Source of the DNA: Geotalea uraniireducens Rf4 | GTDB lineage: Bacteria > Desulfobacterota > Desulfuromonadia > Geobacterales > Geobacteraceae | Reading direction: 5' to 3' | DNA length: 32,000 bases | NCBI RefSeq assembly: GCF_000016745.1 | Contig: NC_009483.1 | Span: forward strand, 2,340,001 to 2,372,000 | In this document: piece after piece, positions 5,528 through 16,454 of the stretch | How positions within the stretch are numbered: the first letter of the stretch is position 1 | Layout: each line of letters begins with the position of its first letter | Notes under the pieces: generated by a model | What the model was told of the DNA's origin: nothing | Seen by the model: the letters and a program-made list of their open reading frames with translations, nothing else | The model's database searches: none | Translations under genes and position numbers: made by a program

Positions 5528-5715
5528 CTGGATCTCCTATCACCGGCACGTTTTTTATGCGGAAGTACGATGACCAAAGTGGTGCGAACAAATGGGCGGA
5601 CATGGCACTGGAAGGCAGGCAAATCCGGTGAAAAAAATTAGGCTGGATTCACTTTAATCGACCACATAATCAGTTAAAATGCCTGCAAAATTTAACTTAT
5701 GACATTTACCTGAAA

Positions 5716-5731
5716 TTGCACAAAAATGCAA
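5716..5731. promoter_or_regulatory. Imperfect palindrome TTGCAC-AAAA-ATGCAA in the pfaD upstream region (candidate operator)
   Basis: Read directly from the sequence, about 190 bp upstream of the pfaD start in an AT-rich intergenic region. No cognate regulator was identified. Confidence 0.2.
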
Positions 5732-5820
5732 GTCAAGACCTCGTTGTCAATGGGTCGATTGTGACGATATGTTTTGATCTTTAAAAGAGATTTAAGGTCG
5801 ATTGAATCCAAAAACAGCAG

Positions 5821-5955
5821 TTAGCCACGAATGACACGAATAAACACGAATATTTTTAACCCCTTGTTAAGTCTTGACTCGTCACCGATCTTGTGAGTGT
5901 CTTCTGCATCACATGAGCCTGTATATTCGTGCAAATTCGTGAAATTCGTGGCTAA
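5821..5955. repeat. 135-bp element with 32-nt terminal inverted repeats, each arm carrying three CACGAAT heptads at 9-10 bp spacing
   Basis: Left arm 5821-5852 is TTAGCCACGAATgaCACGAATaaaCACGAATA. The reverse complement of the right arm 5924-5955 is TTAGCCACGAATttCACGAATttgCACGAATA. Heptads are conserved and spacers are free. The element is intergenic between pfaD and the PAS kinase. Confidence 0.75.
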
Positions 5956-6223
5956 AATGCTTTTTGTAGGATTAATTGTCTTGAACGTTGCCCTCTCTCC
6001 TTCGAGTAGTACAATTAAAAAATCAAACTTAATGGCCGGTACGTTGACGCCCCTCACTGCGCAAAGTTCGGAAGAGCGGTGCTTTATCCGAGCCTGATTG
6101 CAGCATCCAGCTATTTTCCACATTGCGCCAGGAATGCCCCTTACGGAATTACCTCCACGCACAGAAGCCGGCTGGGCATCTTCGAGCTCTTGCATAATCT
6201 GTAACCGAGCAAAGGAGGACCCT

Positions 6224-8938
6224 ATGTCAATATCCGACCTCGACCAGGGAAAGATAAGCCAGGAACAGGAATTGAGAATCCAGCGGCAAATAGCTTTTGC
6301 CTCCGGTCTCTTCCAGGGCGATGTGACGGTACGCACCCTTCTGGAGTCGCTCGCCGAAGGAGTCGTCATCGTCGATACCTCCGGGACCATCCTGCTCGTC
6401 AATACCACTGCCGAGCATATGTTTGGTTATTCAAGGGAGGAGCTCGTCGGCAAGCCCCATGCCATTCTCATTCCCGAACGTTTGCGCGGGGTCCATGAAG
6501 AGCATCAGGCGCATTACTTCGCGGAGCCGAGGCTCAGATCGATGGGTGAACTCCACGATCTTGCCGGACGCCGCCGGGACGGAAGCGAGTTCCCCGTGGA
6601 GATCAGCCTGAGCTTTATCGAAACCATAAACGGCGTCCTCGTCATGGCCTTCGTCAGCGACATCACTCTCCGCAAGCAATACGAGTCGCGCCTTCGGGAG
6701 AGCGAGGAGCTGTTTCACACCCAGGTGGAATGCGTGAAGGACTATGCGATTTTCATGCTAGATGCAGACGGCAATGTTCTGAACTGGAATGCGGGGGCTG
6801 AGCGCCTGAAGGGTTATCAAGGGGAGGAGATAATCGGCAAACCTTTCTCCTGTTTTTATCCCGAAGAGGAGCGCAGCGCGGGCAAACCCGAAGAACAACT
6901 GGAAAGGGCGCAACGGGAGGGGCGCGTTGCCGCTGATGGGTGGCGGGTCCGCAAGGATGGGAGCCGGTTCTGGGCCGATATCATCATCACGGCGCTGCGC
7001 CTTGATGACGGGAACCTGCGCGGCTTCTCAACGGTGACGCACGACATCACCGAGCGCAAGCGGGCAGAGGATGCGCTGCGCTTCAGCGAAGAGCGCTTTC
7101 GTGCCTTGTATCGCGATAACCCGACCATGATCGCTACCATAGATGCCGAGCTTACGATGCTCTCGGTCAATCCGTTTTGCGCCAGCCAACTGGGTTACAC
7201 GATAGATGAACTGGAAGGACAGCCGGTGCTGAAGATATTCCATGAGGACGATCGCCCGGCTTTGGCCGAGCAGTTGCGGAGGTGTCTGCAGAACCCCGCT
7301 CGGGTGTACCAATGGCAGTTCCGCAAGGTCCGCAAAGACGGGGGGCTGCTCTGGGTGGAGGAAATTGCGCAGGCGGTGTATGACCTGAATGGTGCGCTCA
7401 ACATACTGGTCGTCTGTCAGGACATTACGGACCGCAAACGTACGGAAGATGCTTTGCGGGAGAGCGAGGAGCGCTTCCGCGCCACCTTCAACCAGGCCGC
7501 GGTCGGCATGGGCCTCATGACCCCCGATAGCCGCTGGATGCGGATCAACCAGAGGTACTGCGATATCGTCGGCTACACGGAAGAAGAGCTGAAAGCCCTG
7601 ACCATCAAGGACATCACCCATCCCGATGACCGGGAAGAAAGCCTGAAACAGTTCCATCTCCTGCTGGAGGGGAGGATCGGGAATTATTCCCTGGAGAAAC
7701 GCTATATCCGCAAGGACGGCTCCATCGTCTGGGTGAATATCACCGCTTCGATGGTGGCCGATGCCGACGGCAAGCCGCGATTTGCCGTGGGTGTCGTCGA
7801 GGATATCACCTCGCGCAAGCAGGCGGAGGAAGCCTTGGTCCGGGCAAAGAATGAATGGGAACTGACCTTCGACAGCGTTCAAGACCTCATTGCGATCCTG
7901 GATGACCAGTACCGAATCACACGCTTGAACAGGGCAATGGCGAAACGGCTCGGCCGGAAGCCCGAAGAATGCATCGGACTTGTCTGCTACAATGTCATCC
8001 ACGGGACCGAGAGCCCGCCGGAATTCTGCCCGCACATCAAAACGCTGGATGACGGCCGGGTACACGACGCGGAAGTACACGACGGCCATCTGGCAGGCGA
8101 TTTTCTCGTAAGTACTACCCCGCTCCTGGACCCGGACGGGAAGATGATCGGCGTAGTGCATATGGCCCGGGACATTACGGAGCGCAAACGGGCGGATGAG
8201 GAGATCGAGAGGCTGAACACCGACCTGGCGGCGCGGGCCGACGAGCTGGAGGCCGCAAACCGGGAGCTGGAGGCGTTCAATTACACGGTTGCCCACGACC
8301 TGCGCAAGCCGTTGACAGTGGTCAACGGCTACTGCCAGGCAATCCACGAGATGTGCGGCGACAAGCTCTGCGAGCAGTGCACCGGTTACCTCCGGGAGGC
8401 TTACGACGGCACGTTGCGCATGAACGGGCTCATCGAAGCACTGCTCAACTTTTCCCGTTTGGTCCACTTGGAACCGCGCCGGGAAATGGTCGATCTATCC
8501 CACATGGCGCATGAGGTGGAAACGGAGCTGAAGCTGGCCGAGCCGGAGCGACGGGTCAAGTTCCGGATCACCGACGGGGTTAGTGCCGACGGGGATGCGG
8601 GTTTGCTCCGGGTGGTCCTGGATAATCTTCTCGGCAACGCATGGAAGTATACCGACAAGCGAGAGGAGGGGGTCATCGAATTCGGCGTGACGGAGATCGA
8701 AGGGAAACCCGCCTGGTTCGTCCGCGATAACGGCACCGGCTTCGACATGGCGGATGCGGACAAGCTCTTTGCCCCTTTCCAGCGCCTCCCCGGAGTCGAA
8801 GAATGCAGAGGCTTCGGCATCGGCCTGGCCACGGTGGAGCGGATCATCCGGCGCCATGGCGGGCGGGTGTGGGCCGAAGGGGAAGCGGGGAAGCGGGCGA
8901 CATTTTATTTTACTTTGGGCGGTGACAGGATCATCTGA
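6224..8938 (+). CDS. Cytoplasmic sensor histidine kinase with five PAS/PAC modules, HisKA and HATPase_c
   Basis: ATG at 6224 is preceded by AAAGGAGGA; the ORF-track start at 6098 has no RBS. Five PAS-like units each end in a DIT.RK PAC-type string. H-box is AHDLRKPL. The ATPase part has N (LLGNAWKY), G1 (DNGTGF) and G2 (GFGIGLA) boxes. No TM segment. Confidence 0.9.
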   Translation: MSISDLDQGKISQEQELRIQRQIAFASGLFQGDVTVRTLLESLAEGVVIVDTSGTILLVNTTAEHMFGYSREELVGKPHAILIPERLRGVHEEHQAHYFAEPRLRSMGELHDLAGRRRDGSEFPVEISLSFIETINGVLVMAFVSDITLRKQYESRLRESEELFHTQVECVKDYAIFMLDADGNVLNWNAGAERLKGYQGEEIIGKPFSCFYPEEERSAGKPEEQLERAQREGRVAADGWRVRKDGSRFWADIIITALRLDDGNLRGFSTVTHDITERKRAEDALRFSEERFRALYRDNPTMIATIDAELTMLSVNPFCASQLGYTIDELEGQPVLKIFHEDDRPALAEQLRRCLQNPARVYQWQFRKVRKDGGLLWVEEIAQAVYDLNGALNILVVCQDITDRKRTEDALRESEERFRATFNQAAVGMGLMTPDSRWMRINQRYCDIVGYTEEELKALTIKDITHPDDREESLKQFHLLLEGRIGNYSLEKRYIRKDGSIVWVNITASMVADADGKPRFAVGVVEDITSRKQAEEALVRAKNEWELTFDSVQDLIAILDDQYRITRLNRAMAKRLGRKPEECIGLVCYNVIHGTESPPEFCPHIKTLDDGRVHDAEVHDGHLAGDFLVSTTPLLDPDGKMIGVVHMARDITERKRADEEIERLNTDLAARADELEAANRELEAFNYTVAHDLRKPLTVVNGYCQAIHEMCGDKLCEQCTGYLREAYDGTLRMNGLIEALLNFSRLVHLEPRREMVDLSHMAHEVETELKLAEPERRVKFRITDGVSADGDAGLLRVVLDNLLGNAWKYTDKREEGVIEFGVTEIEGKPAWFVRDNGTGFDMADADKLFAPFQRLPGVEECRGFGIGLATVERIIRRHGGRVWAEGEAGKRATFYFTLGGDRII

Positions 8939-8986
8939 CGACTCTTCTCTCTTCGCTCATGGCCTGACTCCGCTCCTGCATGGGCC

Positions 8987-9424
8987 TCATAACCTGGTCA
9001 CCTGGATTATCGACCATTTTGCCACAGCAGTGAAATCGGCAATCGTTATGGTGAAGTTGAGACCCGCCCGGACTGCTGTTCCCGGGCTGATATTCGCAGT
9101 AATATTGTTGGCGTAGATGACGTTTCTGTTACTGTCGGTTCCGGCAAAATTCACTAGAACACTGGCGGTTCCCGTCCCGTTGTTTGTTATGTCGACCAGG
9201 GCCTGAGCGGAGACATTGGTTGAGTCGCGTGAAACTTCAACAACCGACAGATTCGTGGCGATTATGGTTCCTGACGGGTCTTTGATGCCTATGACGGCCG
9301 TGGTGGTATTGGTAAACGGTGGAGGAGGAGCTGGCGGGATGGTCGGGTTGTCTTCGGGGAACCACTGGGCGCCGCAGCTGGTCAATGATATGGCCATGAT
9401 TGATATGAGAAGTGAGCGCATCAT
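8987..9424 (-). CDS. Small lipoprotein of unknown function, Thr/Asn/Ser-rich
   Basis: 145 aa. Signal peptide with lipobox (ISLTS-C). AGGAAG lies 7 nt upstream of the ATG. No recognisable catalytic motif. Confidence 0.6.
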   Translation of the reverse strand: MMRSLLISIMAISLTSCGAQWFPEDNPTIPPAPPPPFTNTTTAVIGIKDPSGTIIATNLSVVEVSRDSTNVSAQALVDITNNGTGTASVLVNFAGTDSNRNVIYANNITANISPGTAVRAGLNFTITIADFTAVAKWSIIQVTRL

Positions 9425-9619: not shown

Positions 9620-10639
9620 TTATTTTCTCTGTCCTCTTTGTATGGACCTTCCGCCCCCACGGGAGGGCGGGCTTACCATTCCGCCGCCGCGTGGCGCCGG
9701 ACTGATCATCCTGCCGCCCCGGGGAGACGGGACGGACATGCCGGTGCCACGGGAGGGTGGTGCGGCCATTCTGCTCCCCCGTGATGTCGGTGCGGCCATC
9801 CTGCTGCCGGGGATTGTCCGTGCCCGAGGCCCGTTAAAAATCCTTCTATCGCTCCTTGGAACACCGGTAGAGATAAAACCCCTCGTACGGGAGACACCTA
9901 TACCCGCAAAGGTCCTTCCTCTGAACCTTGTCACGGGGTCGATGCGGAACACCCTGTGTCGCCTCACGTCGTTGAAGTGGTTCGAGACGAACGCCACTCT
10001 CCTGTCGATGATAACGGTCCTATGGAAATCGTTCAGGATGAAGAAGCCGGGAAACCAGAAACCCGTCCACCAGAACGGATAAGGAACCCAGGAATACAGG
10101 TAGTAGTAATCGGGGGGTGGGGCGTAGTACGTGACCACCGGCGGCCCTTGGTTGTTATAGTAGTTGTTTATGACCGTGGGCTCCGGGTAATTTTCAGCGC
10201 CTGGCGGTGTCTCTTCATAGGTTTTTCCGTCGGTGTGAGGTTTAACTGCCAGACTGAGTTCGGCATTGACGTCATTGAATCTTTTGAGTGCTTCCTCCTT
10301 GCCCATTGATATCTTTTTTGCATCCACGGCATCGTTTATCGATTTTTGCAATTCACCGATTATGTCCGGCGTAACAGGGTAATCGGCGATCCACCCGTTC
10401 CGCGGCGTAATGCCGGCTTCTCCCAGAATGGTCTCCGCCTCGGTCTGATCGTCGGTCGTTCCCAGTCCCAGTGCGAATACCAGCTTGACCGCCAGGGTGC
10501 CTTCCCTGATCAATGGTTGTCCTATCGGTGGCGGGCCCTGTTTTGTCTGTTCAGCTTGTGCATGGACCATTATTGGAAACAATATGAGAAGCAGACTGAC
10601 GACGACTAACTTAACCTTGAAAAGCGATCGTCTTTCCAT
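9620..10639 (-). CDS. Secreted protein of unknown function with an aromatic/Pro-rich centre and C-terminal degenerate 10-aa repeats (SRG.RM..P)
   Basis: 339 aa. N-terminal signal peptide (LLLILFPIMVHA-QA). AGGAG RBS. Central segment YYAPPPDYYYLYSWVPYPFWWTGFWFPGFF. Tail GSRMAAPTSRGSRMAAPPSRGTGMSVPSPRGGRMISPAPRGGGMVSPPSRGGG. Confidence 0.7.
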   Translation of the reverse strand: MERRSLFKVKLVVVSLLLILFPIMVHAQAEQTKQGPPPIGQPLIREGTLAVKLVFALGLGTTDDQTEAETILGEAGITPRNGWIADYPVTPDIIGELQKSINDAVDAKKISMGKEEALKRFNDVNAELSLAVKPHTDGKTYEETPPGAENYPEPTVINNYYNNQGPPVVTYYAPPPDYYYLYSWVPYPFWWTGFWFPGFFILNDFHRTVIIDRRVAFVSNHFNDVRRHRVFRIDPVTRFRGRTFAGIGVSRTRGFISTGVPRSDRRIFNGPRARTIPGSRMAAPTSRGSRMAAPPSRGTGMSVPSPRGGRMISPAPRGGGMVSPPSRGGGRSIQRGQRK

Positions 10640-10708
10640 GGCATTCTCCTTTCTTTCTTGGATAATTGGGGTTTCCTGATGGAAACTATCCGGAAAAATC
10701 GGTTAATC

Positions 10709-10724
10709 GGCAAACTGTGGACCA
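10709..10724 (-). promoter_or_regulatory. Candidate sigma-54 promoter (TGGTCC-N5-TTGC) facing the 9620-10639 gene
   Basis: The minus strand reads TGGTCCACAGTTTGCC. GG and GC have the canonical -24/-12 spacing. It lies about 70 nt upstream of the ATG at 10639. Confidence 0.45.
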
Positions 10725-10919
10725 TTAGAACCAACTGCCGGCTAAGGTCTGTTCTTCAAAATTGCTGCGAAGCTCGGCATGGCCCCTTATTCCGCGTGTT
10801 ACGTTCCTAAGGATAAATTATACCGTTTTTTGTCTTTTCCGCACACGTTCAAACCAGAGCGGCGGCACAAATGCAAAATTCGATGATTCACGCCAGGCAG
10901 GATACTTATCCGTAAGTTG

Positions 10920-10956
10920 GTGCAAAGATCTTCACGTGAAGTGCAATGTTTTGCAC
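10920..10956. promoter_or_regulatory. Candidate enhancer (UAS): weak site GTGCAAAGATCTTCAC plus strong palindrome GTGCAATGTTTTGCAC, centres 21 bp apart
   Basis: The strong site is 14/16 identical to the palindrome at 13702-13717 and has the same weak-plus-strong architecture. It lies in the divergent region between the 9620-10639 gene and the kinase/EBP operon. Confidence 0.5.
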
Positions 10957-11062
10957 CACCAAGGTGCCGCAACGTACCTTGTAGTGATGTAACTATTTGT
11001 AATAACACGAAAAATGAATATTCAGTTATCGGCATGCAATATGATATAGTATCGTTAAAACC

Positions 11063-12331
11063 ATGAGTTTTCAGGTGATTATGCTGAAGAAAATATTAGT
11101 TGTATTCGGTTTTGGATTATCGCTGTTTCTTCTCTGGTTTGCCGTGAGCAATTACCGGGCAGCCGGTCCCATTGCCGAAGAAAATCTCCGTGGCCTCGCA
11201 GTATCCTTGGCTGCAGCGATCGAGAATACTACCAGACAAGACCCTTCATTCAAGTCCTTGACCGGGTTTCACCCTTCCGACGTTGCTTTTTTTGCCATAA
11301 TCGATCGGAAGGGAACCATTCGCTTCCATTCGAACTCCGACCTCATCGGGAGTTCCACGGACAATCGCGATGTTCTGGCGGTCATGCAGAACAAAGTAAT
11401 ATCCGAATCGAGAGTGGTGCTTGGTACCGGAGAAAAAGCGTACCTATTCGACATTCCTCTCGATATTCACGGGGAGGTGTTTGCCCTTCGGCTTACGCTG
11501 CACACTTATAAGGCCGATGCGGTGGTGAGACGGGCTCGTCTAAATTTTGCCTTGCTCCTGTCGCTCTTGGCCGTCGGGTGGTTTCTGGCCGTTATCATCT
11601 ACCGGTTTGCCAAACGGGAAGAGCGGCACCAGATGGAGATGGCCCATCGGGAGAGCCTGGCCAGGCTCGGAGAAATGGGCGCCATGCTCGCCCATGAGAT
11701 ACGCAATCCCCTGGCGGGGATAAAAGGGTATGCCCAGGTTATCGAGAAAAGACCGGCTGAAGAACGAAACCGCAAGTTTGCTCAAAGCATCGTCAACGAG
11801 GTCCTGCGGCTGGAAAACCTGGTGAACGAACTTCTTGCATATGTGAGAAACGAAAGTACATCCATGAACCTGATCGATAGCGGTGGACTCATTTCCCATG
11901 CCGTTTCTCTGATTCGTCAGGAGGCTGAGCAGCTTCATGTGGCGGTCAGCATCGAATGTCCAGAAAATCTGCCCGTCCTAGGAAACTCGGACCGACTGGT
12001 TCAGGTACTGCTCAATCTTTTTAAAAACGCTCTCCAGGCAATGCCCGACGGCGGCAGTTTGCGCATTTCAGCCGGTATCGCCGGTTCAGCCGTTAGCATA
12101 ACCGTTGCCGATTCGGGAGCCGGCATCAGCCAGGAGGACATGGCGAGGATCTTCGAGCCGTTTTTCACTACCAAAGCACGGGGAACCGGTCTGGGTCTTG
12201 CCCTCTGCAAAAAGATAATCGGCGAGCACAACGGGACGATCAGCGTATCGAGCAGAGTCGGTCAAGGAACTTCAGTATCGATTACCCTTCCTTTGCAAAA
12301 AGGAAATATACCTGGCGGGAGCAGCTTATGA
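11063..12331 (+). CDS. Membrane sensor histidine kinase (two TM segments flanking a periplasmic domain, HisKA, HATPase_c), partner of the downstream sigma-54 activator
   Basis: 422 aa. TM1 [18 protein letters not shown] and TM2 [18 protein letters not shown]-box AHEIRNPL. G-boxes DSGAGI and GTGLGLALC. Its stop overlaps the next start (ATGA). An alternative start is ATG 11081. Confidence 0.88.
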
Positions 12332-13671
12332 CGGGACGTATACTTATTGTTGAAGACGATGAGACATTCAGGAGCTTTTTACGGACGATCCTGGAGGACG
12401 TCGGGCATGAGGTTCAGGAAGCCGGCGACGGCCTCAAGGGATTGCGTTTGCTGCGACGGGAAAACTTCGACCTGGTGATTTCAGACCTGAAGATGCCGGG
12501 TAAAAGCGGGCTTGAGCTGTTTCGCGAAACGAGACAGGACTCAAGCCCCCCGCAGTTTATCTTTCTGACGGCATTCGGGAAGGTGGAAGAGGCCGTTTCC
12601 GCAATCAAGGAAGGAGCCGTGGATTTCCTGACCAAGCCCCTTTCTGATCCCGACACCCTGCTTGTCCTGGTTGATAAGGTAATTGCATCGCAGGGCCGAG
12701 CACGAGACTATCTATCTCTCAAGGAAGTTGAGGCTGCGGGCCTGCCGCCGGAGGATTTGATTTTCGCCGGGGCGGCCATGAGAGACATACGGAAGATGGT
12801 CCATGAAGTTGCCGCGACCACTGCCAGCGTTCTCATTTACGGTGAGAGCGGCACCGGCAAGGAGTTGGTTGCCCGAACCATTCATTTGCTGAGTCCCAGA
12901 CGTACGGCTGCTTTCGTTCCCTTGAACTGTGCGGCGATTCCTGAGAATCTACTGGAAAGCGAACTTTTTGGTCATGAAAAGGGCGCCTTTACAGGCGCCA
13001 TTCAGGCGCGGCACGGTAAATTCGAGCTGGCCAGGGGAGGGACGATTTTTCTGGATGAAATCGGCGAGATGCCGCTTTCCTTGCAGGTCAAGTTGTTGAG
13101 GGTCTTGCAGGAGCGGGTTTTTGAGCGAGTGGGTGGCGCCAGGGAAATCAAGGCTGATGTGCGGGTTATCGCAGCCACGAACCGCAATCTTCAGGAAGAG
13201 GTGTCGGAACGGAGGTTTCGTGAGGACCTTTACTACCGTCTGAACGTTTTTCCGCTCAGTCTGCCGCCATTGCGGGAGCGTAACGATGCCGTTCATCTGC
13301 TGGCCGATTACTTTCTTCGCCGTTTCAGCCGACAGGTCGGCAAGAAACTCACGGGGATTGACGATGGGGCCTTTAATGCGATGAAAAGTTATGACTGGCC
13401 GGGCAATATTCGCGAGTTGCAGAACGTCATGGAGCGTGCGGTTATCCTGGCGCATGATGTGGTCAGATATAATAATCTGCCGGATCAGATGCTTGCAAAG
13501 TCCGCGTCAACTGCCCGCGGGGGCAAGGATGTCCTGAAATCCGTGGAACGGGAGATGATCATCAAAGCCTTGAACAAGCATGGCGGAAATCGCCGCCTGG
13601 CTGCCGAGGAGCTGGGATTCTCACGCAGGACCTTGCAGTACAAGCTGAAAGAGTTTGGCTTGCTGGATTAA
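12328..13671 (+). CDS. Sigma-54-dependent response regulator (REC, AAA+ and Fis-type HTH; NtrC family)
   Basis: 447 aa. Receiver domain ILIVEDDE...DLVISDLKMPG. Walker A GESGTGKE. The sigma-54 contact loop GAFTGA is present. C-terminal HTH NRRLAAEELGFSRRTLQYKLKEFGL. Confidence 0.93.
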   Translation: MTGRILIVEDDETFRSFLRTILEDVGHEVQEAGDGLKGLRLLRRENFDLVISDLKMPGKSGLELFRETRQDSSPPQFIFLTAFGKVEEAVSAIKEGAVDFLTKPLSDPDTLLVLVDKVIASQGRARDYLSLKEVEAAGLPPEDLIFAGAAMRDIRKMVHEVAATTASVLIYGESGTGKELVARTIHLLSPRRTAAFVPLNCAAIPENLLESELFGHEKGAFTGAIQARHGKFELARGGTIFLDEIGEMPLSLQVKLLRVLQERVFERVGGAREIKADVRVIAATNRNLQEEVSERRFREDLYYRLNVFPLSLPPLRERNDAVHLLADYFLRRFSRQVGKKLTGIDDGAFNAMKSYDWPGNIRELQNVMERAVILAHDVVRYNNLPDQMLAKSASTARGGKDVLKSVEREMIIKALNKHGGNRRLAAEELGFSRRTLQYKLKEFGLLD

Positions 13672-13680
13672 ATGTATCAG

Positions 13681-13718
13681 GTGCAAATCATTGCGTTATC
13701 CGTGCAATGAATTGCACG
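13681..13718. promoter_or_regulatory. Candidate enhancer (UAS): weak site GTGCAAATCATTGCGT plus palindrome CGTGCAAT-GA-ATTGCACG, centres 21 bp apart
   Basis: 8+8 perfect inverted repeat at 13701-13718, read directly from the sequence. It lies about 80 bp upstream of the TGGCACG element at 13792. Confidence 0.55.
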
Positions 13719-13791
13719 AATTTTTACTGAAAATTGGCATTACAAACTTGTAAACGATGCTAAAACAGATAGTTGTGTGGTGTGTGGTTTT

Positions 13792-13807
13792 TGGCACGAA
13801 CTGTGGA
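13792..13807 (+). promoter_or_regulatory. Candidate sigma-54 promoter (TGGCACG-N4-GTGG)
   Basis: TGGCACGAACTGTGGA. The -24 element is perfect. The -12 element is GTGG instead of TTGC, so the conserved C is missing. Spacing is correct. It lies about 45 nt upstream of the ATG at 13853. Confidence 0.4.
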
Positions 13808-13852: not shown

Positions 13853-14389
13853 ATGGGAAAAAGTCGCTTTTCCTTAATTATAGTGTCTGTCGTCCTTTTG
13901 CATTGCCTTTCAAACGGCAGCGCCTTTGCCGGTTTCGGTTTCGGTGGCTATGACGGCGGGGCGAGCGGTCTGGACTTCAACAAGGGGTATGATGTCAACA
14001 CGGTGGTAACGGTCTCGGGTCGTGTGACATCGCTCCCGCATGCCGGAGAACAGGACCATCTTATCGTCGAGGTCAGCGCCGGCAGTGAAATCGTCAACAT
14101 CAGTCTAGGCCCGAAATCGTTCTGGGAGAAAAAGGATCTAACGCTCCATTTGAACGACGACATCTCCGCCAAGGGATCAAAGGCACAGGGCAAGGACGGT
14201 AAAACCTACCTGATGGCCCAGAAGCTCACTAACAAGACTACCGGTGCCCAGGCGCTGTTAAGGGGGGATAGAGGTGCGCCTGCCTGGTCAGGGAGAACTG
14301 CAAACGGCTCCATGTCCAATCGTCCTGGCGGCGGGATGTTCAGGGGGGGCGGGATGATGCGGGGCGGCGGCGGAATGATGCGCCATTGA
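13853..14389 (+). CDS. Small periplasmic protein with a probable OB-fold-like core and a Gly/Met/Arg tail
   Basis: Signal peptide LLHCLSNGSAFA. Core with VSGRV..., LGPKSFW and LLRGDRGAPAWSGR. This pattern resembles, from memory, the small periplasmic MamS/MamX-like or BOF-type proteins. Tail is RPGGGMFRGGGMMRGGGGMMRH. I prefer the ATG at 13853 over the GTG at 13850. Confidence 0.7.
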   Translation: MGKSRFSLIIVSVVLLHCLSNGSAFAGFGFGGYDGGASGLDFNKGYDVNTVVTVSGRVTSLPHAGEQDHLIVEVSAGSEIVNISLGPKSFWEKKDLTLHLNDDISAKGSKAQGKDGKTYLMAQKLTNKTTGAQALLRGDRGAPAWSGRTANGSMSNRPGGGMFRGGGMMRGGGGMMRH

Positions 14390-14444
14390 CATTGATCGTA
14401 TCACTCTGGTTATCGTCTAAATGCGTTACAATGGAGAGGAGAGC

Positions 14445-15326
14445 GTGAAACATAACCGTTGTTCGGAAAAGTTTATAGCCCTGCTGGTGGTCATGACCGT
14501 TTTGCTGATACCGTCCCGGCTTTTTGCTGAAGAGCCATCATACTCCACCAGCCTCGGTTTTGAGTTCACTACCGGCAAATACGGGACAGGAATTAAAACC
14601 GACGCCATCTTCATGCCGTTCACCGTTGCCGTTTATCCGACGGAGCGGCTCGATTTTTCGCTGCAGATACCCTATGTCTACCAGAGCAGCAGCGCAGTAG
14701 TTGCGGGCGAATTCAGGGGGATGCAGCCGCAATCCATGGGGATGGGCTCGCAGTCGGTCTTGGCCGCCATGGGTAGCATGGGCAGCGGCACCGGCGGGCC
14801 GGGCCCGAGAACTACGGCATCGGCGGCCAATGTCGATAAATCCCAGAACGGACTCGGCGACATCACATTCAGGGCAGGCTACATCGTGGTTCCAGAGGGA
14901 GATTATCTGCCGGGCATCCGTCCCAACTTCTTTGTTAAATTTCCCACCGCCGACAAGAACAAATTTCTCGGGACCGGCGCCTTTGACGGAGGTCTTGCCG
15001 TGGAACTTTTCAAGTGGTTTGGTTATTGGCTCACCATTGGGGAGTTGGGGTATGCAGTCCAGGGCAAATCGTCGGTGCTGGCCGTTAAAAATTACCTCTA
15101 TTACAACGCCGGGGTCGGTTACCAGATCGGCGAACGGCTGCGGCCGATGCTCATGCTCAAAGGGAGCACCCCTCCCGTGGAGGGCGCTTCAGCCCAGCTG
15201 GAGGCGCGATTGAGGGTCAAGTACCAGATTACCGAACATACCGGCATAGACGGTTACGTCTCAAAGGGGATCAATACGTCCAGTCCCGATTACGGCACCG
15301 GTCTGGCGTTCTGTCTCGATTTCTGA
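14445..15326 (+). CDS. Outer-membrane beta-barrel protein (MetA-pathway/phenol-degradation-like transporter family)
   Basis: GTG at 14445 follows GGAGAGGAG directly and is in frame with the ORF-track start at 14421. Signal peptide ends ...SRLFA-EEP. The NGLGDITFRAGY motif is typical of this barrel family. Alternating hydrophobic strands. C-terminal aromatic residue (..FCLDF). Confidence 0.72.
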   Translation: MKHNRCSEKFIALLVVMTVLLIPSRLFAEEPSYSTSLGFEFTTGKYGTGIKTDAIFMPFTVAVYPTERLDFSLQIPYVYQSSSAVVAGEFRGMQPQSMGMGSQSVLAAMGSMGSGTGGPGPRTTASAANVDKSQNGLGDITFRAGYIVVPEGDYLPGIRPNFFVKFPTADKNKFLGTGAFDGGLAVELFKWFGYWLTIGELGYAVQGKSSVLAVKNYLYYNAGVGYQIGERLRPMLMLKGSTPPVEGASAQLEARLRVKYQITEHTGIDGYVSKGINTSSPDYGTGLAFCLDF

Positions 15327-15563: not shown

Positions 15564-16454
15564 ATGAACAGGAAAATTATCGCAGCAGCAGTCGTGACAG
15601 CAGCATTGACAGGAGCACTTGCGGGATGCGGAGGAAGCGGCACGACCTCTGCGCCAGTATCCGTGAGCGGGACCGTGGCCGACGGTTATCTGGTGGGGGC
15701 CGAGGTCTTCCTCGACAAAAACAATAACTACCAGTGGGACGAAGGTGAGCCGAAGACCATGACCGGGCCTGGAGGAACGTACACGCTGACCATGACGGCG
15801 GGCGACATGGGAAAATACCCGGTCGTGGTCCGTGCCATAGCCGGAAGCACGGTGGATGAAGACACCGGACAGACGGTGCCGAACGATTACGTCATGTCCG
15901 CGCCTCCGGCTGCCGGCGGATTTGTCAGTCCCATGTCGACCCTGGTCAGGGAAAAAATGGAATCGAATCCGGGGATGACCATGGCGCAGGCGATGATACA
16001 GTTGAGGAACCAGCTCAATCTCCCGGCAGGCATGGACATGCTTGCCGACTATGTGGCGGGCTCCGGCTACGGCCCATACCAGGGTCAGTACCAGTCCATG
16101 CACCAGGTTGCCCGGCAGATGGCTGGGCTGATGGCGGACCAGTCCTCGCTCGTCTTGAACGGCAGCGTGGTCAACAAGGGGCGTTATCGGGGGATGATGG
16201 GACAGCTCAACCAGAACCTGCCGCAGATCGCAAACAACGCCTTTCAGGGGATGGGTATGGAAAGCACCTTCATGACCGACATGCGGAGCCGGATGCGGAC
16301 GATGCTTGAATCCATGTCGGCGGTCAACGGTTTCGGCAACTACTCGGCAATGTTCCGTAACATGACCAGTCACCGGTTTTTCTGGAATTACTCAGGCGGT
16401 CGCATGCAACCGGGCAGCGGCATGATGGGCGGTGGTACGAGAGGCATGATGTAA
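15564..16454 (+). CDS. Methionine-rich lipoprotein of unknown function
   Basis: Lipobox LAG-C. GGAG RBS. By my count 31 Met in 296 aa, concentrated in the C-terminal 180 aa. It ends GGRMQPGSGMMGGGTRGMM. Confidence 0.75.
   Translation: MNRKIIAAAVVTAALTGALAGCGGSGTTSAPVSVSGTVADGYLVGAEVFLDKNNNYQWDEGEPKTMTGPGGTYTLTMTAGDMGKYPVVVRAIAGSTVDEDTGQTVPNDYVMSAPPAAGGFVSPMSTLVREKMESNPGMTMAQAMIQLRNQLNLPAGMDMLADYVAGSGYGPYQGQYQSMHQVARQMAGLMADQSSLVLNGSVVNKGRYRGMMGQLNQNLPQIANNAFQGMGMESTFMTDMRSRMRTMLESMSAVNGFGNYSAMFRNMTSHRFFWNYSGGRMQPGSGMMGGGTRGMM

Follow-up and report, generated by a model that had tools for sequence, protein, structure and literature searches.

A probable AtoSC-like sigma-54 two-component module with two rightward enhancer/promoter modules in Geotalea uraniireducens Rf4

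At the glnAp2 promoter the enhancer-binding protein (EBP) NtrC has two strong dimer sites, at about -110 and -140. They lie on the same face of the DNA; NtrC oligomerises on them and reaches the closed sigma-54 complex by looping. The ntrC gene itself belongs to an operon which is activated by NtrC. Here we study an arrangement of this kind in Geotalea uraniireducens Rf4: a sensor histidine kinase gene and an EBP gene with a pair of palindromic sites (dyads) on either side. They are found in a stretch of 32,000 nucleotides (contig NC_009483.1, positions 2,340,001 to 2,372,000 of the forward strand), which we will call the window; all positions are counted from its first nucleotide. The closest characterised homologue of the EBP is AtoC, for which two sites have been experimentally verified in Escherichia coli (PMC3118216). 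Two other systems are of interest by their self-regulation. In Salmonella both zraP and hydH have sigma-54 sites and the system is thus autoregulated (PMC3844500), as we propose for the window. CorS-CorR, a sigma-54 two-component system of the deltaproteobacterium Myxococcus xanthus, has a periplasmic sensor and is encoded within the copper-induced curA operon which it controls, so that it is also autoregulated (PMC3707914). We consider it probable that the locus described here is an AtoSC-like sigma-54 two-component module, autoregulated and with two enhancer/promoter modules which both face rightwards.

What we say on the sites, on their conservation and geometry, on the promoter elements and on gene content comes from sequence comparison. 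Each pair is made of a weak and a strong dyad. In the left pair the weak, promoter-distal dyad GTGCAAAGATCTTCAC (10920-10935) is followed by the strong and perfect dyad GTGCAATGTTTTGCAC (10941-10956); their centres are at about -128.5 and -107.5 from a start predicted at 11056 on the plus strand. In the right pair the weak dyad GTGCAAATCATTGCGT (13681-13696) is found 10 bp past the stop codon of the EBP gene, followed by the perfect dyad GTGCAATGAATTGCAC (13702-13717), with centres at about -129.5 and -108.5 from a start predicted at about 13818. The two strong dyads are identical in 14 of their 16 positions. In both pairs the weak site is upstream and the step from weak to strong is exactly 21 bp. 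The positions of the four dyads, their 14/16 identity and the 21-bp step had already been given in an initial annotation of the window, and all of them are borne out when the sequence is read again.

Perfect copies of GTGCAA-N4-TTGCAC appear only twice in the 32-kb window, at 10941 and 13702, as compared with about 0.002 expected by simple arithmetic from the 12 specified bases. When up to two mismatches with GTGCAANNNNTTGCAC are allowed there are four matches: they are the four dyads, the partners of the perfect copies carrying two mismatches each. Shuffled windows have 1.29 such matches on average, and 2 out of 100 shuffles reach four. The dyad pairs are clearly non-random.

The two genes enclosed by the pairs are on the plus strand. 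The sensor histidine kinase (11081-12331) has HisKA and HATPase_c domains in Pfam, and its translation shows two transmembrane segments with a periplasmic domain of about 130 amino acids. Its start is probably the ATG at 11081, which has a Shine-Dalgarno sequence AGGTGA, and not the ATG at 11063 found in the list of open reading frames (ORFs): the nearest orthologue is called at 416 amino acids, which fits 11081, and with a start at 11063, which is less likely, the leader would shrink to about 7 nt. The EBP (12328-13671) is a response regulator of the NtrC/AtoC type, 100% identical to the NCBI protein of G. uraniireducens. It has all the features of NtrC-type activators: a REC domain (Response_reg, 1.8e-27), a sigma-54 AAA+ domain with the GAFTGA loop (Sigma54_activat, 9.8e-74, followed by AAA_lid_14; EKGAFTGA is read in the translation) and a C-terminal helix-turn-helix of the Fis type (HTH_8, 7.4e-16). 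It had been described as the only EBP in the window, which is the case: tblastn with its AAA+ core gave nothing better than E=0.23 elsewhere in the window, and no further sigma-54 activator appeared in Pfam scans of the other large ORFs. We have found no paper on this two-component system in the literature and no relevant match for the halves of the 16-mer; a paper on the EBP regulome of Desulfovibrio vulgaris contains no matching motif.

Conservation of the 16-mer in orthologous loci had been proposed as a check of the sites, and we have carried it out. The loci were taken by protein identity, independently of the motif: L081/L082, L083-L088 and L091. They are eight distinct loci, since L081 and L082 are two contigs with the same EBP and were counted as one. 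The EBP is 76-88% identical in L081-L088; taken over all eight loci, the identities measured go from 76 to 96%. L091 is the closest relative: the protein to the left of the system is 96% identical and the gene order of the window is maintained. The right pair is present in all eight loci, with the weak dyad a few bp past the EBP stop and the strong dyad 21 bp further on. In their alignment (A1) the half-sites GTGCA./TTGCAC are invariant, whereas the N4 spacer and the flanks vary. Invariant half-sites with a free spacer are what is expected from an EBP enhancer; they are therefore the signature of a protein site and not of an RNA hairpin. A block GTTAT is also kept in A1 between the upstream activating sequence (UAS) and the promoter; we looked at it by eye as a possible IHF site. 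Beyond the enhancer pairs, the approximately 85 kb of L081-L088 contain no other dyad match with one mismatch at most.

A pattern scan of metagenome contigs, in which the dyad was itself the search pattern, gave 80 loci. In about 17 of these an EBP orthologue is encoded which ends beside the dyads (identity 59-79% for those with the gene on the contig), and only they have been used; the other 60 or so are unrelated, either chance matches or matches from other systems. The loci of generic EBPs (48% identity at most) behave differently. In 78 of them there is no TGCA-N6-TGCA dyad within 90 bp 3' of the EBP gene, and the 16-mer is found nowhere in 80 such loci, used as a negative control. From these comparisons the palindromes appear to be binding sites that have been conserved; the adjacent EBP is the most plausible protein to bind them.

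Downstream of the right pair we find a sigma-54-type promoter, TGGCACGAACTGTGGA (13792-13807, plus strand), with its GG at 13793/13794. Its -24 element is canonical; at -12 it has TGG and not TGC. The initial annotation had placed the right pair upstream of such a promoter, facing the gene at 13853. This holds: the dyads are at about -108 and -129, and the arrangement is kept in the orthologues. The distance between the strong dyad and the promoter element, which formed no part of any search pattern, is 89-92 bp in 22 out of 22 right-hand modules and in 7 out of 7 left-type modules. The metagenome loci with an EBP have it again at 89-92 bp in all cases except one (L146, with TGGTACGGACCTTGAA). 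The right-hand promoters have the consensus TGGCA(C/T)(G/A)-N4-(G)TG(G/T/A)A. The GG and the spacing expected of a sigma-54 -24 element are present in the 29 promoters of both kinds, 26 of which have TGGCA[CT]; L146 has TGGTAC, and the left promoters of the window and L091 begin with CGG.

The left pair is accompanied by a similar promoter, CGGCATGCAATATGAT (11030-11045, plus strand), with GG at -25/-24 and TGA at -12. It is found 89 bp from the strong left dyad at 10941 and directed towards the kinase and EBP genes, which is the same geometry as in the right-hand module. Its equivalents are CGGCATGCGATGTGAT in L091 and TGGCATGCAATGTGAT in L081. A left-type module is also present in L081/L082, L084, L087 and L091, as well as in the metagenome loci L137 and L144. 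The GTGCAA half of the weak dyad is invariant across the seven left-type modules, and wherever there is such a module it is followed by genes on the plus strand. In L081/L082, L084 and L087 these are a gene for a glycine-zipper lipoprotein and then the kinase and the EBP. L144 has a small ORF and a secreted protein of 538 amino acids before the kinase and the EBP; L137 has a glycine-zipper lipoprotein gene and a homologous protein of 534 amino acids, with no kinase. The comparison indicates that the lineage of the window has lost the glycine-zipper lipoprotein gene, and since it is lacking the left promoter abuts the kinase gene.

The most likely role of the left pair is to let the kinase/EBP operon activate itself (positive autoregulation), because the right-hand geometry is repeated on the plus strand and is conserved in the relatives. 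The idea of the initial annotation, that a single kinase/EBP pair drives both flanking units, is thus kept in part: two promoters appear to be served and the right unit is one of the likely targets; the left unit is not supported as a target, and the left pair faces the kinase and EBP genes.

Some side features of this region should be added. The secreted protein of about 535 amino acids found behind the left-type promoter in L144 and L137 (MK.ISYICSAISLLFA...LTPN...KLSTVS) may be a further member of the regulon; it is absent from the window. Three genes of L082, whose EBP is 88% identical, are missing from the window: an OEP efflux gene (in 10658-10918), the glycine-zipper lipoprotein gene (at about 11056-11072) and a gene for a small Met-rich secreted protein (at about 13821). 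The enhancers and promoters are still in place. In L091 the arrangement is that of the window, with about 158 bp just left of the left dyads as compared with about 25 bp in the window.

The operon which follows the right-hand module has three genes on the plus strand. The first target (13853-14389) is a secreted protein with an OB fold, similar to MamS/MamX. It has a signal peptide; in the predicted structure the OB-fold core, residues 50-135, has pLDDT values of 80-92, and the top matches of the model in the PDB are the OB domains of lysyl-tRNA synthetases. The protein ends in a disordered tail, whose terminus GGGGMMR(H/R) is conserved (alignment A3). The name "DNA-binding protein" which the NCBI gives to the MamS/MamX-like family is probably a misnomer, since the signal peptide, the predicted OB fold of the periplasmic type and the conserved C-terminal motif make it doubtful. 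We found nothing relevant in the literature on MamS/MamX in Geobacter. The second gene (14421-15326) codes for an outer-membrane beta-barrel of the Phenol_MetA_deg family, with a Met/Gly-rich loop in its translation; it is a conserved partner in the operon. The third one (15564-16454) codes for a lipoprotein of 296 amino acids, with 10.5% Met and a Met/Gly-rich tail, and is the last operon gene in most of the orthologous loci, with a product of about 290 amino acids; in L083, L084 and L088 its tblastn match is weak or missing. The orthologous operons often begin with a small secreted protein rich in Met, Gly and Thr, which the window does not have. Such small secreted proteins of the relatives contain 7-15% Met, as compared with a background of 2.4%. 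A second MamS/MamX operon in G. argillaceus (L215) is uninformative on the spread of the regulon, because its upstream region adjoins a transposase-type gene (HTH_23/28/29) at the end of the contig.

The neighbours in the relatives include a heavy-metal P-type ATPase (L084), the OEP gene (L082) and RND pump genes (ACR_tran, in L086 and L087). With due caution we suggest that the inducing signal may be a soft metal, of the Cu/Ag type, or envelope stress. The more ambitious proposal, that we have at the same time an uncharacterised Geobacteraceae envelope regulon for soft metals and a selectively maintained subclass of sigma-54 promoters without the -12 C, is rather doubtful. If true, such an envelope system would be formed by the OB-fold GGGGMMR protein, the barrel with its Met loop, Met-rich lipoproteins and small proteins with 7-15% Met, and a subclass lacking the -12 C could differ from canonical Geobacter promoters in the balance between basal and activated expression.

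From all these data we infer that the EBP is the protein that binds the dyads, and the following mechanism may be proposed. The phosphorylated EBP would bind as dimers to the two dyads of the GTGCAA-N4-TTGCAC type, which should be on the same face of the DNA since 21 bp correspond to two helical turns. The bound EBP would assemble into an active oligomer and loop to the RNA polymerase-sigma-54 complex about 90 bp downstream. Module 1 (13681-13717 with the promoter at 13792-13807) would switch on the operon of the OB-fold protein, the barrel and the Met-rich lipoprotein. Module 2 (10920-10956 with the promoter at 11030-11045) would switch on the kinase and EBP genes, which amounts to positive autoregulation.

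A number of observations weigh against this interpretation, starting with the -12 region. The canonical GC at -13/-12 (TTGCW) is found in 0 of 29 promoters, a count which overstates the number of independent events because the sequences are related. T and G are kept there, with the G present in 29 of 29; the C is always missing and its position is occupied by G (15), A (8) or T (6). The sigma-54 consensus of G. sulfurreducens, a species in which rpoN is essential, was obtained with PromScan and is canonical, TTGGCACGGTTTTTGCT (PMC2725144). The left promoter of the window begins with CGG instead of TGG, and its leader would measure about 25 nt to the ATG at 11081 or about 7 nt to the one at 11063. 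An upstream pair is missing in L083, L085 and L088; autoregulation would thus be optional and not universal in the family. The dyads of the metagenome loci, not their promoters, are conserved by construction, because the dyad pattern was used to choose them. As for metal stress, it is suggested by composition and gene neighbours. The departure at -12 makes the fit to the consensus poorer; it is compatible with sigma-54, since TGT and TGA sites exist in Salmonella: promoters bound by sigma-54 and activated by EBPs have variant -12 elements in hydN (TGGCACGATTCGTGTATA), pspA (...TTGTATT), pspG (...TTGTAAG) and STM0649.S (...TTGATTA) (PMC3844500). Dependence on sigma-54 is what we infer as the best reading, because of the adjacent GAFTGA activator, the fixed distance of the enhancer and the conservation.

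Among the alternatives, the one that survives best concerns the gene on the other side of the left pair. It is found at 9620-10639 on the minus strand and codes for a secreted protein of 339 amino acids with PxRGGGM-like repeats at its C-terminus. The initial annotation had proposed that the left pair drives this gene from a -24/-12 element TGGTCC-N5-TTGC, TGGTCCACAGTTTGCC (10724-10709, minus strand); the pair would then be a leftward or shared enhancer, perhaps acting besides autoregulation. The element has GG-N10-GC with the correct spacing and lies 59 nt upstream of the ATG. It is established that EBPs act by DNA looping, so that a distance of about 230 bp would be possible in either orientation. 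The repeats of the left protein are reminiscent of the GGGMMR tail in the right-hand target, and in both L082 and L091 the left gene is again in the vicinity of the system.

Against this proposal, TGGTCCACAGTTTGCC scores 8/12 with respect to the sigma-54 consensus, and GG-N10-GC with a score of at least 8/12 is matched 66 times over both strands of the window (about one per kb), so that chance alone is expected to give one such match in the 423 bp of the intergenic region. In L091 there is an indel exactly at this place and the -24 GG has become TG (CTGTCC...TTTGCC); the plus-strand promoter and both dyads are intact despite this loss. In L082 the window segment 10658-10918 has no counterpart: that interval is occupied by the OEP efflux gene, a left-gene homologue with 75% identity is downstream of it, and upstream of the OEP gene there is no sigma-54-like element on the minus strand. 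Homologues of the left gene found at two other loci, L089 and L090, have neither the dyads nor a promoter of the TGGCA type. In the window itself, the minus strand of the intergenic region has no promoter of the regulon type (TGGCAY...xTGD). The check suggested for the -24/-12 elements has given a mixed outcome: the right element is kept in the orthologues, the leftward one loses its GG in L091 and its segment has no counterpart in L082. We judge TGGTCCACAGTTTGCC to be a chance match and the left gene is not supported as a target of the enhancer; activation of this gene by the left pair, also in a bidirectional role, appears improbable. The left protein belongs to a large family, with 2921 matches in Geobacteraceae, Syntrophales and others; it has a 58%-identical paralogue in the same genome, which UniRef labels as DUF3300, and its middle segment is rich in Tyr, Pro and Trp.

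It is less probable still that a different regulator, a repressor or another protein with a helix-turn-helix, binds the dyads and that the EBP gene is adjacent by accident. This possibility is suggested by L113, which has no EBP nearby: the same 16-mer is found there in tandem, with a 21-bp spacing, on an unrelated element that bears an integrase. The 16-mer alone is thus not diagnostic of the regulon. In L113 (contig Ga0153932_1000357, 3240-3350) we count 3-4 tandem GTGCAA-N4-TTGCAC dyads, which look like iterons or operators. An accidental adjacency does not agree with the fact that in every orthologue the pair keeps a fixed offset from the EBP gene and that it is absent from the 78-80 loci of other EBPs. 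Nor does it agree with the classical enhancer distance, -108/-129 from a promoter of the -24/-12 type, or with the resemblance of the dyads to the verified AtoC sites.

The last alternative, that the palindromes are RNA hairpins and that the right strong dyad together with AATTTTTACT is the intrinsic terminator of the kinase/EBP operon, is very unlikely: a terminator scan does flag 13701-13718 followed by a T-run, in a region that folds with z=-2.2, but the T-run is absent in the orthologues (A1), the stem positions are invariant instead of covarying while the loop varies, and the left pair follows no gene end and folds no better than shuffled sequences (z=-0.6). A hairpin would have at most a secondary, strain-specific role. 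With one more C-G pair and AATTTTTACT behind it (13701-13727), the strong right dyad has a terminator score in this strain only, and this segment could at the same time serve to terminate the kinase/EBP operon.

Two features of the window are found further to the left. In L091 the gene of 144 amino acids which is homologous to window 8987-9424 is separated from a FabD-like gene by about 470 bp (7651-8119). The window has about 3.4 kb in this place (5528-8986), with a five-PAS histidine kinase (6098-8938) and an ORF of 195 amino acids; when compared with L091, the difference resembles an insertion or deletion specific to the strain. This part also contains the best canonical sigma-54 match of the window: TGGCATGGGGCTTGCC (6449-6464, minus strand) scores 10/12 and is located 41 bp upstream of the ORF at 5821-6408 (minus strand, 195 amino acids, no match in Pfam or NCBIfam). 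We identified no activator or enhancer for it.

The architecture found here is standard for systems of the NtrC/AtoC type; what is mildly unusual is the conserved -12 element. Scans based on the sigma-54 consensus, with TTGC at -12, will tend to give low scores to promoters of this class. With the reading we favour, an autoregulated module with two rightward promoters, one of the many uncharacterised sigma-54 activators of Geobacter may be given a binding motif (GTGCAA-N4-TTGCAC, with a step of 21 bp between its two sites), a type of promoter and a core regulon. The composite signature, a dyad pair with TGGCAYR-N4-xTGD at 89-92 bp, could be used to list the regulon throughout the genome. The Met/Gly-rich secreted and outer-membrane targets are candidates for a role in metal or envelope-stress physiology, in an organism of interest in uranium bioremediation.

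We will now compare the locus with the described systems. CorSR offers a functional precedent for a self-regulated EBP which responds to metals. It acts on the genes of a multicopper oxidase and a P1B ATPase, and the comparison with the window system is one of function; we know of no binding motif for CorSR. ZraSR, which responds to Zn/Pb and envelope stress, is similar by its kinase, which senses the periplasm, and its NtrC-type EBP; both ZraP and the first target of the window are small proteins of the periplasm with a tail rich in Gly. ZraS is the best NCBIfam model for the window kinase, with 246 bits, below its cut-off of 479; for the EBP the ZraR model gives 370 bits with a cut-off of 760. 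The differences are in the layout and in the target. The zraP gene is divergent from zraSR and shares with it one intergenic enhancer, with a sigma-54 promoter expected on each strand. We considered such a divergent layout in view of the Gly-rich tails and ruled it out, as the minus-strand element of the window is at chance level and not conserved. The target in the window has a predicted OB fold, unlike the helical ZraP/CpxP type.

NtrC shares with the window system the GTGCA core of its half-sites. The NtrC dyad, TGCACC-N5-GGTGCA, differs in the orientation of the half-sites and in their spacing, and its regulon is that of nitrogen assimilation. The EBP has 418 bits with the ntrC model, below the cut-off of 559.

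AtoSC with its target operon atoDAEB is much closer in organization, since the order kinase, EBP, UAS, sigma-54 promoter and target operon is found in both cases. In E. coli K-12 (L214) atoC ends at 1452 and is followed by the cores of the verified sites, ATGCAGAAATTTGCAC (1467-1482) and GCGCAATTTTCTGCAT (1486-1501); the ato promoter TGGCACtccccTTGCT (TGGCAC-N5-TTGCT) starts at 1587, ahead of atoD. The window has the same enhancer architecture, with 13681-13717 and 13792 as the equivalent positions. The UAS begins 10-15 bp past the EBP stop (15 bp in atoC) and contains two adjacent dyads (G/A)TGCA(A/G)-N4-(T/C)TGCA(C/T), that is TGCA-N6-TGCA, with the promoter about 90-100 bp further on. The window EBP is 45% identical to AtoC over its full length, including the helix-turn-helix, with a recognition helix SRRTLQYKLKE as compared with SRRALMYKLQE.

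The two systems also differ in several respects. The dyad step is 19 bp in ato and 21 bp in the window, the -12 element is the canonical TTGCT in ato and TGG in the window, and the window has a second UAS/promoter module, which we take as autoregulatory. The window kinase fits the AtoS model only at residues 170-407 (HisKA/HATPase): no PAS domain was found in it by Pfam, and the sensor region of AtoS is unmatched. AtoC (NF008469) is the best NCBIfam model for the EBP, with 473 bits, below the equivalog cut-off of 714. The adjacent operon is not atoDAEB: instead of the breakdown of short-chain fatty acids, the targets in the window are secreted and outer-membrane Met-rich proteins, with the OB-fold protein, the barrel and the Met-rich lipoprotein downstream of the EBP. 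The system is AtoC-like in its working and it is not an AtoC orthologue.

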